Assembly (NCBI RefSeq): GCF_018977255.1
Contig: NW_024704743.1
Location: 17,982,001-18,046,000, forward strand
Length of the DNA: 64,000 nucleotides
Source: Callorhinchus milii
Taxonomy: Eukaryota
Direction of reading: 5' to 3'
Shown: in pieces, positions 26,171 to 40,820 of the stretch
Layout: every line of letters begins with the position of its first letter
How positions within the stretch are numbered: the first letter of the stretch is position 1
Position numbers and translations under genes: made by a program
Notes under the pieces: model-generated
Seen by the model: the letters and a program-made list of their open reading frames with translations, nothing else
What the model was told of the DNA's origin: nothing
The model's database searches: none

Positions 26171-27329
26171 GTCTCTTATTTGCTATGGACTTGGATCAAT
26201 GATGTGAATGGTACGGAGGACCATGTTGCTTTCTATGATGTGTCAGATTTACCAGAATTGCTGTTTCTGTGACTGTACTGTCACCCTGCAAACAAGTGAG
26301 CTGGGTGTTACTGGAAGTGGATGGACTCTTGCAATATGTTGCCAAATAGTTCATAAAGGCAGATATCATGACATAGACGAGCAGTTTAAATTCAATAGGA
26401 GGCTTACTTTAGAAGCCAATTAGAACAAATCCATATTTACTAAATATGTACTAAATAATATAATTAAAACGCAGTGTTGCATCTCACCACATTTGGTTAT
26501 CCAATGTGCTTAACTCACAGTCCTTTTAGCTGCCTCAGTGTGCTTCTTTCATATCCTGTCCAGAGTATTCCTTCCTTCCCTGACAGAGGAATCTCTTTAG
26601 CTATCATAGCAAGTAATGATACAGTGATGAATGCGTGGATGAGGGTCTCAGTGGCCTTAGGGAAGAGGCAGTGGTAGAGCGGGGCAACATTGCGGAGGTG
26701 GGAGAAAGCAGAACGGGTCAGGACAGATGTGGGGTAGAAAGGAAACGATATCCTGTCAAGTTGTGTGACTGTGCGTATTTTGTGGCAGCCAATTTGCGCA
26801 CAGCAATGGTACTTCCCATTGTCTGGCCTAAGCTATACCTAACACTGAACTGCTGAATATGGTCACAGTTCTCATTGATCAGACTTAAAATTAGATGTCA
26901 ACATATTGGCTTACGTTCAAAACTAGCTGCTTTCTGCTGACATTTATTGCCCAATTAGTGTAGCAGTCTTTTTTTGTAGAGGCCTCATCAGAATTTTGGC
27001 CATTAAAAGTAATTTCTGACAACATAAAAGAAACACAGAAATAAAATGAAAACTAAATACAATGTAAAGTTCTCGCCTGAGGAGAAATACACGAATAATA
27101 AAACTCAGATTTACAATAAAATACATTTTATCAACCATAACTAAATGGAATAGTCTGATGTCTCATGAACAAGAACATTTTATAATGTAAGAATCAGTTT
27201 CATTGATGTCAGCTATTGATACTATCAATCTCCTACTAGAGTCGACGTCTCTGAGGTGCTGGTTTTTGCTGAAATGGGGGAGGCATTGCATGGGAGTGCC
27301 TCAGGCGTCTGTGCTGAGATGCTTCAGGT

Positions 27330-27590
27330 TTCGACCTCCTGCTTGTCCCTCATGCCCCCTATCCCACCATCAGTGGCCACGCTTTCAGGCACTATGCCCT
27401 GAAACTCTGGAACCCGCTCCCTCCGCCTTTCCCCTCCTTACCTATCTTCAGGTCACGCCTGAGGACTTTCCTCTTTGACTGTGCCTACAGTCACCTCTCC
27501 CCAGCTTGGCGTTGTGCTCTGCCATTGTCAAATGCTCTGGGATGCTACCCTGTGTGAGGAGCACTATATAAATGCAAGGTGGTGTTGTTG
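27330..27590 (+). mobile_element. L2 3' end (second tail subfamily)
   Basis: cccaccatcagtggccacgctttcagg...gcactatataaatgcaaggtggtgttgttg. Confidence 0.8.
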
Positions 27591-27829
27591 TTTATGGTAC
27601 ACATAATGAACTTGGATTTGTGTACTCAGTGCATACAATTAATATGGCAGTTAATGACTACAAGATTATAATAATAAGTTATAATAATCTTTCCATTTGG
27701 TATAGCCCCTTTCGCATCAGGAGGATGTCCCAAAGCACATCACAGGATATACTGTAAAATGCAGTGACTATGTTTTGTGGGCAACTGCAAAATCAGAGGA
27801 GACTGAATTTGAAATACCACATCCAATTT

Positions 27830-28487
27830 ATCACATCTCCGACACTGCTTCACCCATCAGGCCACTGAAACCCTCATACATGCCTTCATTACATCTAGGC
27901 TCGACTATGCTAACTCCCTGCTTGTTGGCCTTCCCAACTCTTCCATCCACAAGCTGCATATCATCCAGAACTCTGCAGCTCATGTCCTCTCACGCACCAG
28001 GCTCTGTGACCCCATCACCCCCACCCTCGCCCGGCTCCACTGGCTCCCCATCACTCAGAGGATAGAGTTCAAAATCCTCGTTCTCATGGCAATCCATGGC
28101 CTCGCCCCCTCCTACCTCTCCAACCTGCTAACCCCTTATCATCCTGTCCACTCCATCCACTCAGCAGGCTCTGGCCTGCTCCATGTCCCCCAACCAGCCC
28201 GCCCCACCATTGGTGGTCGGGTTTTCACCCTCTGTGCCCCAACTCACTGGAACTCCATCCAGATTCCCTTTGCCTTGTTCCCTCCCTTGCCTCCTTCAAG
28301 GCTCGCCTCAAGATCCTCCTCTTCGACCGTGCCTTTGGCCAACCTCATACCCTCTCTGCCCTCCACCCTCCCTGATCTCAACACCGCAAGCCCCCTACTT
28401 GGATCCTAATCCCTGACTGTTCAGTGCCTTGGGACGTCCTCCCTCCTAACACGAAAGGCACTTTACAAATGTAATTTTGTATTGTAT
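27830..28487 (+). mobile_element. L2 3' portion
   Basis: SRLDYANS, IQNSAAH, IHGLAPSYLS; L2 tail at 28420-28487. Confidence 0.92.
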
Positions 28488-28699
28488 TGAATCTCACATG
28501 GAAATATCCAGTCTAAATGTTACCCTTCATCTAATTGACTATAAATCTGACTATTATGATGTTAATGCTACTGTTAGTGTAATTGCCTGAAATGTGTATT
28601 CACTGCAGTAAGGTTGAATGCAGGAACATATTCTCAGGGTCATTTTATTGCTAAATGAAATGATCTTTTTGTTAGGGAAATGTCTTCATTTACGGCTTT

Positions 28700-28970
28700 A
28701 CACCGAGATCCTGTCTGGCTGTTCTAAAAAACATTAAACACCCTAAGGCACTTTTGATAAGAAAAGGGAATTTCTCCCAGTGTCTTGGATAACAATCCTC
28801 TGGATAAATTTGCTTTAGTTCTCTTTGAGACTTTTTGTGGGACATTGCTGTGTGTAAATTAGTTGCTGTGTCTGCCTACAAGTACAGTCACTACGCTTTA
28901 CAGCAAATATCTGTGCCACTCTCCAAGGTGTTTCACCGTGTTCAGTACTCTATCAAATGCAGGAATTATT
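28700..28970 (+). mobile_element. Old DeuSINE-like 3' half
   Basis: gggaatttctcccagtgtcttgg...ttgtgggacattgctgtgtgtaaatt...tatcaaatgcaggaattatt. Confidence 0.7.
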
Positions 28971-28971
28971 G

Positions 28972-29206
28972 TGAAACAAAAACATAAGTCATTGGGAACA
29001 CTCAGCAGATCAGGCAGCATCTATGGAGAAAGGAAACTGAGTCAACGTTTCGGGTCCACCACCCACCGTCAGAACTGATGAAGCGTCAAGGACCCGAAAC
29101 CTTGACTCACTTTCCTTTCTCCGTAGATGCTACCTGACTGCTGAGTTTTCCCAGCGACTTCTGTTTTTGTTTCAGATTTCCAGCATCTGCAGTATTTTGC
29201 GTTTTG
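28972..29206. mobile_element. Palindromic Penelope-like pLTR-derived element with hammerhead-like cores
   Basis: Arms 28972-29057 and 29090-29174 are ~85-bp inverted repeats. CTGATGA (29075-29081)...GAAAC (29096-29100) on +, mirror core on -. gaattatt flanks both sides. Confidence 0.8.
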
Positions 29207-29763
29207 TAAGAATTATTATTGTCTGTCACACTGGGTAAACTGGTGAGCAGACTTGTTGGTAATCAGGAAGAAATTAATTTCTTCAATGAATGGTATTATT
29301 CTGTTTAGGCTGAAAGGTGTTCAGTAAAGCAATTTGTGAATTTCTGTTAAAAGGCAATTCAGCTTGTTAGAGCCTAACCAAAGGCTGTTTGTAATGAAGG
29401 CAAGTAATTCTGTGCAGGTGGAAACCTTGGGTTATTTACTGCAGTTCTGACCTTTTGCTGAAACCCATGGTGAATGGGAACCTATTGGGATTGGAGGTTG
29501 TCAAATGTAACTAATTTTATGATGTGCAGTATCCACCCGATTCTCTTGGGTTCCAGTTTTGGTTTGTGTGCAGAAAGACTTTGCTATGTCACTTTTATTT
29601 CCTGCCCCCAGTAAAAGTGAGCTTTAAATCGATCACACATTTGGAATCATAGTATAATGCTGTGCAAAAACTCTGGCTTTTTTTCCAATGAGCCGGTATT
29701 GGTGAGGAGCAAGTTAGCAGTACACCATCCATAGCCACGTGCTTGACACAACCTATGTGTATT

Positions 29764-30102
29764 ATAATAATATTAATCCTTGCATTTGATATAGTGCCTT
29801 ATCACATCTTTGAGATGTCTCAAAGCGCTTCACAGAATATACTGTAAAGTGAATTGACTATATATTCTGTGGGCAAAACGCAGCAGCCAATTGCATACAG
29901 CAGTGTCCCACAAACAGTTGTGATTGAAGTGACCAATTTATCATTTTTTTGAAGAAATTATTACCCCCGGTTCCCACTTACTATTAGGTAAACAGAGGCA
30001 TGTGGAGTAAGGAAACTTGCCCAACATTTTGCTCTGCCGGGAATCGAACCCAGGTCTCTCGCTTGCGAGGCGAGTGCTCTAACTACTGAGCTACAGGACT
30101 CC
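29764..30102 (-). mobile_element. tRNA-derived SINE, long subfamily (partial internal deletion)
   Basis: Head ggagtcctgtagctcagtagttagagcactcgcctcgcaagcgagagacctgggttcgattccc. Confidence 0.92.
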
Positions 30103-30284
30103 GTATTGGAGACTGAAGTGCCTATTGAAGGTTGGTACTCATATACTGGATAAAAAGTGTGGTATTTCCTTAGAGATTAGCTCTGAAATATTGCACTATT
30201 CCATCCAATTCCAACGACTGGTCAGATAAGTGAATAACCCTCACCAAATTCCTACTTTATTCTGTTCCTTCACTTCTGGCTGTG

Positions 30285-30655
30285 AGTAGTAATGGGGGAG
30301 TGTTGCATAATTGGAGAAGCCATCTTTCAAAATGGGGTGTTAAATTCAGGTACCGTCTGCCTGCTTTTCAGGTGGACCTTAAAGATCCCCCAACACTATT
30401 TGAATGGAGAAGAGAGTTTTGCCTGTTATCCTGGTGACTAATCCTCCAAATTAATTGGACTGTTTGTAGCGCTTTGTACAGTGCCTTGTGACGTCCTCCG
30501 ACGTGAATGGCGCTGTACGAATGTAATCTTGTTGTTGTTGTTGTGTGCAAAATAGCTGCTGTGTTTGTATGCAAAGAAGTCATCATACGTGACTTTCATA
30601 ACTACGATGCATTTTGAAACATTGTGATGTTATAGGTACTATTAAAATGCAGCTT
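30285..30655 (+). mobile_element. Old DeuSINE-like element with an L2 tail (30470-30542) inserted
   Basis: ggggagtgttgcataattggagaagccatctttc...caggtggaccttaaagatccc...; L2 tail gtgccttgtgacgtcctccgacgtgaatggcgct(ttg)n sits inside. Confidence 0.72.
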
Positions 30656-31059
30656 CTCGATTTCCTATAGAGGAAGGAAGGGAATAAAAGTAGATGATTG
30701 CCTACAGGGATCTCTGATGCACGTTCACTCACAATACACGGTCACTGCACTTTACAGTATATCCTGTGAAGTACTTTGTGACTTCCTCTGATGTGAAAAA
30801 TGCTATTCCAAATGTAAGGATTCTTATCCTTATTCTCCGAAAGCCCAGTTTAGCAGTCTTCCCAGAAGCCAATGGGCAGGTAAGAGTAAAATAAATAAAA
30901 TACTTTGAACATGGGGAAATCAAATAGAAAGCTAGGAATGTTGCCAAATCTGATGGTAGCTCCCAGGTAAATTGTTTCAAGATATATATTAAAGATTTTT
31001 ATGTGTGAAGCTTGTGTAGAAGTAAAATTGCCATTAGGTCCCAGCGCAGCACACATCAC

Positions 31060-34734: not shown

Positions 34735-35320
34735 ATGGTTTCTTGGTAATGTTCTTCACTCTGGGTCAAAAGATTGTGCATTTAAGCCCAGGTCAGGATT
34801 TGAGAATACAGTCTAGGGCAGTGTTGGCCAACCTTTTTGGTAGACCAACAAAATAAATGTTCTTGATTGAATATTTCTTGATTTATGCCACAAATCAAGA
34901 AATATTTATTCCAAAAAAAAATAAACAAATCATTGATTTAAAACAGACTCACCTGGACTAGTGCAAATGTTTGGCAGGCCAATTCTTGAAGACCCCACAG
35001 GCCAGTTCCACCTGTGGGCCATGGGTTGACCACCACTGTTCCAGGGTGGCAGTCAAAGTCCAGTATTGGTGAGTGTTGTATTGAAGGAGGTACCATCTTC
35101 TAAGCCTGTTTATGGTAAAGATCCCAAGATGGCTTTACCATATTCGAAAAAGAGAAGGGAGTTTCTGCCAGTGTCCTGATGAAAAATCCTCTAGATTAAT
35201 TGATCATTTACTTTATGGCTGTCTGTAGGTTTCTACAGGCACAAATGGCTGCTCTATTTGCAAAAGCAGTTATTAAATCTGTCAGTGATCGCTTTTCGAC
35301 GTGATGGGGAACAACACGAA
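34735..35320 (+). mobile_element. Old DeuSINE-like element hosting a MITE
   Basis: Head ctctgggtcaaaagattgtgcatttaagccc...gtctaggg. The Deu sequence resumes after 35046 (aaagatcccaagatggc...gggagtttctgccagtgtcctg). Confidence 0.7.
34819..35038 (+). mobile_element. Non-autonomous hAT (Charlie-like) MITE
   Basis: Terminal inverted repeats cagtgttggccaacc / ggttgaccaccactg. 8-bp flanks gtctaggg / ttccaggg fit an NTCTAGAN-type target. Confidence 0.82.
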
Positions 35321-38869: not shown

Positions 38870-39530
38870 AATCATGTGCTGACCACTCTCTGGTACCTGT
38901 CCCAACTGGGCATTTTCATGTATAAATCCAGGCGGACAATTTGACCACAGATGATGTTGCAGCAATTTTATCCTTTCTCAAACTCCCCACAGCTAAACTT
39001 TCCAGCACAAGTCACTGGGTAGCAGTCTGGAGAAGGAAAGCTAGCTGAATATTTTTTGTCTCTTTACCCCAAAGTAAAACCAATGGTCCCAATGGTTCCA
39101 CTGCTGCCAAAGCTAAGATCAGTTCTCAGAAAGAACCGATTTCCAAATTAAGACTGAATTTAAACACTTTCTAAATTCTGTTTGATTTCCAATTCTAAGA
39201 TAAAATGGCCGTACACCTCTAAAGCAGTGGTGGCCACCCTGTGTTTTGCCATCAAGAAACATCCCCCGAACATTCGCATGAGTCTAAGTAAGTTTATGTT
39301 CAATTGTTGTTGATTAAATATTCCTTGATTTATGCCATAAGTCAAGAAATATTCAATCAAGGACACTTATTTTGTTGGACGACCATAGAGATTGGCCAAC
39401 AAAATAGGTGGTTGGCCACCACTGAGCTAAATGGTAACTCAGCACAGACCAGGGATCGAACTGGAAAACATCTGGGCCTTTTTGAATCAACTTCACACTA
39501 AGCAGTATCTTTAACACTTGTGCCATTGAC
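38870..39530 (-). mobile_element. Ancient SINE-like element with tRNA-like head, interrupted by a MITE
   Basis: B-box-like gttcgatccc (reverse complement of gggatcgaac, ~39451-39460) followed by tggtctgtgctgagtt; body continues at 38870-39125. Confidence 0.6.
39225..39424 (-). mobile_element. hAT-like MITE, second copy (opposite orientation to 34819-35038)
   Basis: TIRs cagtggtggccacc / ggttggccaccactg. Internal 39315-39378 is the reverse complement of 34846-34906. Flanks ctctaaag / agctaaat. Confidence 0.8.
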
Positions 39531-40689: not shown

Positions 40690-40820
40690 CTTTCTCTGAC
40701 ATAAGATCATTGACCTGAAACATAAACTCACTTTCCTCTCCATAGATACTGCCTGAACTGCTGAGTGTTCCCAGCGACTTCTGTTTTAATTTCCAGCATC
40801 TGCAGTATTTTGCCTTTTTG
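40690..40820 (+). mobile_element. Solo arm of the Penelope-like pLTR element, degenerate hammerhead core
   Basis: ctgacataagatcattgacctgaaac...ctttcctctccatagatactgcctgaactgctgagtgttcccagcgacttctg...ttccagcatctgcagtattttgc matches 29075-29206. Confidence 0.82.

Follow-up and report, generated by a model that had tools for sequence, protein, structure and literature searches.

The palindrome of about 240 bases around positions 28972-29207 raises the question of whether it spreads as a unit in its own right or was left behind by the integration of another element. It lies in the window (the whole 64,000-nucleotide stretch of Callorhinchus milii DNA analyzed here), which is rich in LINE fragments and SINEs and in which self-matches cover 37%. 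Our analysis showed that the palindrome consists of two copies, joined head to head, of a repeat end that is very abundant (Table 1). We read it as a 232-237 nt two-copy head-to-head insertion with a tail on one side only and a target duplication of 10-15 bp, whose very probable origin is the abortive integration of an endonuclease-bearing (EN+) Penelope-like element (PLE) encoded elsewhere; it is most likely an ordinary PLE stub and not a new self-spreading element.

Table 1. Coordinates of the palindromic insertion, its hammerhead motifs, its target site and related copies (window positions unless a contig is named).
Feature	Position	Strand	Description
Inverted tail-less pseudo-LTR arm	28972..29076	-	105 nt; 5' end at hammerhead helix I
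Direct pseudo-LTR arm	29075..29174	+	100 nt; lacks 1 nt near 29137 that the other two copies have
Head-to-head junction	29073..29076	.	29075-29076 common to both arms (2-nt microhomology)
One-sided tail, family 3' end	29175..29207	+	31-33 nt; present in the solo copy, lacking in the inverted arm; loose ends 29205-29207
Minus minimal type I hammerhead motif	29040..29076	-	Core 29072-29044; A9 changed to G; CG palindrome
Plus minimal hammerhead motif, truncated at C3	29075..29107	+	Core 29075-29103; CUGANGA and GAAA intact
Target-site duplication, left copy	28961..28970	+	Exact 8-bp core 28963-28970; 9/10 over 10 bp; up to 28958-28972 (12/15)
Target-site duplication, right copy	29208..29217	+	Core 29210-29217; up to 29205-29219 in the longer register
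Host repeat: decayed tRNA-SINE-type remnant whose ATT-repeat tail is the target	28759..28960	+	Left limit approximate; many copies in the window
Solo copy of the same family	40696..40818	+	Decayed hammerhead core, body and tail; no inverted partner
PLE ORF 3' part (zinc-finger-like linker, GIY-YIG) with intact-looking minimal hammerhead core	L122 118-1297	-	Metagenome contig

First, we compared the two arms. The original prediction had described two inverted arms of roughly 90% identity, and pairwise alignment of 28972-29057 with 29090-29174 bears this out, with 77 of 86 aligned columns identical (89.5%). Comparison of both arms from the core to the arm end gave 85 identical columns out of 101; loop II differs between the arms, and the 16 differing columns overall may stem from separate templates or from later decay, which cannot be separated on sequence grounds. 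Beyond the inverted repeat, an extension of 31-33 nt is present on the right arm only. This one-sided tail, absent from the first reading of the locus along with the solo copy and the loss of helix I from the plus core, is the most diagnostic feature of the element, and its length at a single end falls within the 30-40 nt of PLE tails. The extreme ends of the element show a complementarity of only 11/30, so that the inverted repeat is not terminal.

A third copy of the family, the solo copy, is approximately 79% identical to the plus arm, and no clear target-site duplication was found flanking it. Its first stem II pair is A-U, the corresponding pair being G-C in both arms of the palindrome, which suggests that these sequences may belong to two subfamilies; this is the only two-sided stem II change seen among them, too little to count as covariation. 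All three arms in the window begin at most 4 nt from hammerhead C3 (at 29076, 29075, and 40696). Two side observations concern the tail. The boundary between arm and tail (29158-29175, plus strand) coincides with a polypyrimidine-CAG stretch resembling a 3' splice acceptor; intron retention is known in PLEs. In addition, folding predicts an 8-9 bp helix between the tail and the arm body (29125-29190, plus strand), which may be a structure at the sites where reverse transcription starts.

We then analyzed the hammerhead motifs, which lie back to back, with start positions of 29075 (plus core) and 29072 (minus core), 2 nt apart. The minus core has a helix I of four pairs and a stem II with four of five pairs, followed by GAAA-C-G-U-U. 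The plus core reads CUGAUGA-A, also with four of five stem II pairs (C29084 stands opposite C), followed by GAAA-C-C-U-U; its 15.2/16.2 palindrome is broken, and it has no contiguous helix I pairs because the copy is cut at C3. Apart from these defects and the A9 change of the minus core, both agree with the published consensus of minimal hammerhead ribozymes (min-HHRs; PMC4209133 Fig. S3), and neither copy combines an intact core, stem II, helix I, and the 15.2/16.2 palindrome. Inspection of cores and stem II thus matches the earlier description of a hammerhead-like core with a defect on each strand, as does a relaxed descriptor of core plus stem II, which has two matches in the window, both at the element (mean of 0.033 and maximum of 1 in 60 block shuffles). 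This descriptor was written after both sites had been seen, leaves position 9 free, and misses the more decayed solo copy. An Rfam search of 27000-31000 (E ≤ 10), by which the original prediction was to be verified, returned no hammerhead, its only matches being chance miRNA hairpins and a tRNA-like SINE head.

The contigs of four sequencing runs, aligned on the 801-nt stretch 28700-29500, allowed us to place the A9 defect. At 29066, the letter corresponding to the canonical A9 accounts for 17,417 of 17,689 depth units in run X1, and the other three runs are similar (approximately 98%), from which it follows that the defect is private to this copy. The presence of a min-HHR within the pseudo-LTR (pLTR) is therefore supported by both the fit of the cores to the consensus and the family-majority A9. 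As described in excerpts from Cervera and De la Pena (2014), most min-HHRs of fish PLEs reside in truncated copies that stand alone, and dual motifs are found on opposite strands approximately 100-700 bp apart (PMC4209133). The motifs analyzed here share with these metazoan PLE min-HHRs the CUGANGA-H core, the extra nucleotide before stem II, the G10.1-C11.1 pair, the absence of helix III, the palindromic 15.2/16.2 positions, and the short helix I; in contrast to those excerpts, the two cores at this locus are back to back and each carries mutations. The supplement file of that paper that was searched yielded no shark entry.

The element is a real insertion. This is established by an empty site, since the flanking repeat taken alone is weak evidence: one organism B contig (run X8, record 25) aligns to 28705-28960 and 29208-29469 with record positions 686 and 687 contiguous, and therefore lacks exactly 247 nt at the element, both flanks being approximately 83-85% identical. 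The empty site thus corresponds to a single contig, of one run, from a second species at that level of identity. Contigs of organism A, which may include the source sample, cross both junctions (run X1 record 2 over 28835-29013 with 0 differences; records 8 and 24 over 29181-29500), and none of the contigs listed spans the whole stretch. The motif GAATTATT, proposed in the original prediction as a possible target-site duplication, is exact (8/8) at both flanks and is confirmed in this role by the organism B contig. The match extends to 9/10, 11/13, or, in a shifted register, 12/15, so the length of the duplication is ambiguous at 8-15 bp at this single locus. The duplicated 10-mer is weak by itself, as 8 of 63,990 plus-strand positions, in SINE tails, match at least nine of its ten letters. 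Divergence between the arms (10-16%) is at or below that between the flanks of organisms A and B (15-17%), and because of this the insertion probably occurred after the A/B split.

The target is the tail of a host repeat whose tail motif is common to more than 10 other copies in the window. A tRNA-like match of 58 bits at 30029-30100 (minus strand) heads a repeat of approximately 340 nt with many window copies that end in ATT repeats; this repeat is a tRNA-derived SINE family, and the palindrome inserted into a target of the same kind as the tails of this family. Two further inverted matches were noted in the window. Two opposed SINE tails, outside the element, form an inverted 22-nt match (28947-28968 and 29774-29795), and another small palindrome, 37 nt long and 92% self-complementary, lies at 34870-34906 in a repeat also present at 39297-39401.

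These features agree with the published insertion pattern of EN+ PLEs. In excerpts from Arkhipova et al. (2013), an inverted pLTR with a 31-bp tail, duplications of 8-10 bp, and head-to-head junctions are reported (PMC3846280), and excerpts from Craig et al. (2021) describe an adjacent, inverted, 5'-truncated copy at the 5' end of PLEs and a tail of 30-40 bp at one end (PMC8557442). Such a 5'-truncated inverted neighbor, joined head to head, is present at the locus, together with a short duplication in an AT-rich target, of 10-15 bp with decay. Our reading as a PLE stub rests on this combination, since a head-to-head inverted copy, a one-sided tail of 30-40 nt, and a short duplication constitute the published EN+ PLE signature. 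Within the text of those two sources, the likeness comprises the head-to-head copy, the one-sided tail of 31-33 nt, the short and variable duplication, the AT-rich simple-repeat target, and the small junction overlap. In contrast to those insertions, the element is extremely 5'-truncated and without an ORF body, both arms being approximately 100-135 nt long; it may belong to either the Neptune or the Poseidon clade.

The repeat family is very abundant. The number of contigs aligned on 28700-29500 was 14,473, 15,784, 25,113, and 4,527 per run, counts to which the SINE remnant on the left contributes. In run X1, summed depth, which is not a copy number, reaches 350,000-510,000 on the arms versus approximately 8 on the right flank, and drops at approximately 28970 and 29207. 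The family 3' end is identified at 29205-29207 by the heterogeneous loose ends there. In run X16, guessed to be RNA, the family is present and the right flank of this locus is absent, which speaks neither for nor against expression of the locus. The family presumably resembles abundant cartilaginous-fish repeats and may well be catalogued in Repbase or Dfam; a literature search for this repeat family in sharks returned nothing relevant.

These data bear on a first alternative, namely that the palindrome is a non-autonomous PLE derivative that is transcribed and re-mobilized in trans as one unit. Among the contigs listed, eight from other loci span a similar centre (0-9 gap letters, at least 80% identity), although two of them may represent one locus in two runs; such contigs are present in both organism A and organism B (records 3-5, 12, 20, and 26-29), and a palindromic master could also produce them. 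The start points of the two arms almost coincide, as expected from such a unit, and excerpts from Arkhipova et al. (2013) indicate that pLTR sequences can be mobilized in trans (PMC3846280). Against this, the range of gap letters suggests that the centres vary, depth at the centre is roughly one tenth of that on the arms, a solo arm exists at 40696-40818, tandem units are lacking, and the RNA of such a unit would be a duplex of approximately 100 bp that buries the cores. The centre data make it more likely that palindromes are built anew at each insertion, at a preferred stop, than that they spread clonally, and we consider trans-mobilization of the palindrome improbable.

Far less credible is a fold-back DNA-transposon derivative (a MITE of Mutator or hAT type) in which the hammerhead likeness is incidental. 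The long inverted repeat and the exact 8-bp core of the duplication, which could be 9-10 bp, would suit it, but the terminal inverted repeats at both extreme ends that a MITE or fold-back transposon should have are absent (11/30), and we largely rejected this candidate. Moreover, the 31-33 nt overhang at one end is the conserved 3' end of the family, one copy stands alone, the catalytic A9 is retained in most of the family, and chance matches to the descriptor are rare. Almost no credence can be given to a solo pLTR stub later duplicated in inverted orientation by fold-back repair, or to an assembly artefact, since even if palindromes are hard to assemble and no listed contig covers the stretch in full, arms 10-16% diverged are not expected of an artefact, organism A contigs show both outer junctions, and the duplication flanks the whole unit, all 247 nt of which the empty site lacks.

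We also rejected a non-LTR retrozyme, which requires direct tandem units, as no direct-repeat family was detected in 28400-29800. According to excerpts from PMC7229834 and bioRxiv 10.64898/2026.07.22.740005, animal non-LTR retrozymes resemble the element in being non-coding, in having a type I hammerhead, and in their kinship to PLE pLTRs; they differ in consisting of direct tandem repeats with a hammerhead per unit and a circular RNA, the element being an inverted pair with broken cores. The original interpretation is retained in one part, that of two inverted PLE pLTR ends with minimal hammerhead cores and a true target-site duplication, non-coding and with the PLE protein elsewhere. The other part, a retrozyme- or MITE-like unit spreading as a palindrome, is not supported in view of the lack of tandem direct units, the non-terminal inverted repeat, the solo arm, and the seemingly varying centres.

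Returning to the reading as a PLE stub, we searched for the protein that it implies. As stated in the original prediction, no Penelope RT or GIY-YIG sequence is present in the window: analysis of ORFs, tblastn, and Pfam found no PLE protein sequence, and thus no adjacent PLE ORF, within it. In tblastn, 29 PLE-related proteins gave two matches to the window, both from a single fused protein through its LINE-type endonuclease region, and no meaningful match to the element; Pfam analysis of 140 of the 217 unmasked reading frames of the window identified only LINE-type RT and endonuclease domains and no host gene. Translation of the plus arm found no protein relative, which is weak evidence, and no coding frame could be shown in the element.

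Outside the window, a family-style core pattern matched one record (L122) of a metagenome collection and none of the viral contigs. The L122 core follows, after approximately 160 nt, the stop codon of a same-strand ORF that encodes a GIY-YIG domain (E = 4.9e-5), and 17 of 28 longer relatives of this ORF have an RVT_1 domain. The link is at the level of the motif only, as the match is guaranteed by the pattern and blastn found no further similarity to the element; the independent point is that the sole match of this type sits at a PLE 3' end. These searches recovered no autonomous PLE bearing exactly the end seen in the palindrome. A generic core pattern gave 121 loci in viral contigs, which were dropped as unrelated. 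No match was obtained by blastn of the arms against the 122 stored pattern loci (E ≤ 0.01), by tail patterns in viral and metagenome contigs (0 loci), or in a plasmid search.

Regarding ribozyme activity, the element is predicted to fold into a long single hairpin on either strand (z = -18.7 on the plus strand and -16.1 on the minus strand; none of 200 shuffles as good). In the predicted full-element fold the GAAA of both cores is fully paired, with an unpaired probability of 0. Imposing the hammerhead shape on the full element by constraints costs 23-27 kcal/mol, a rough test in which single arms also pay approximately 11. Transcripts of the locus are therefore predicted to make a long hairpin and not an active ribozyme, and self-cleavage here is unlikely, because the fold-back would bury both cores and each transcript would contain a single sense core. 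Dimer cleavage, which the original prediction had envisaged, is predicted to be blocked in this arrangement, as every transcript would contain one of the cores in antisense orientation, base-paired with the other. By these predictions, the hammerhead is a passenger at this locus.

How such a stub could arise is suggested by work on the green anole Poseidon element, for which excerpts from Frangieh et al. (2024) report that both strands are nicked and extended with a preference for ATT, that two start sites bound the tail, and that uncleaved RNA is the main template (PMC11167929). The ATT target, the tail delimited by two start sites, the uncleaved template, and the extension of both strands all have likely counterparts here; on the other hand, the anole element is a different family whose tail, per those excerpts, lies 111-118 nt into the ORF, and no coding frame is demonstrable in our element. 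By analogy with this in vitro work (PMC11167929), a GIY-YIG endonuclease would nick both strands of the ATT-rich SINE tail, and each nick would prime reverse transcription on uncleaved PLE RNA. One cDNA, begun at the outer start site, would produce the arm with the tail, and the other, begun approximately 32 nt further in, the tail-less arm. Both would stop where the hammerhead begins on its 5' side, and the 2-nt overlap at 29075-29076 would allow the two cDNA 3' ends to anneal; fill-in would then generate the palindrome and the target duplication, and the copy would later decay. The template would be uncleaved because the arms reach approximately 30 nt beyond the putative cleavage site on its 5' side. 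An alternative route to the same product may be the self-priming fold-back put forward in PMC3846280.

A further proposal is that the 5' ends of the stubs are non-random and mark a defined RNA 5' end, or a stop of the reverse transcriptase at helix I, and that the family is copied from a SINE-like PLE RNA of approximately 135 nt. We regard this as rather doubtful. Depth falls well before the hammerhead, which counts against a fixed short master, and 39 contigs show a weak loose-end consensus upstream of helix I (agreement 0.58) that resembles a splice acceptor, suggesting that some copies extend further upstream of helix I.

As it stands, this finding matters little, being one decayed copy among very many and the insertion pattern having been described in 2013-2021. 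It provides a compact example, with its empty site, of the geometry of arms, tail, and duplication predicted by the 2024 in vitro work on PLEs. Were the proposal of a defined 5' end and a short template RNA correct, thousands of such palindromes would document in the genome how priming on two strands from two start sites is followed by annealing of the cDNAs, and both the in vivo mechanism of PLEs and the role of the hammerhead fold would be testable from sequence alone. The clustering of truncations at helix I across the family, if real, would bear on what PLE hammerheads do.
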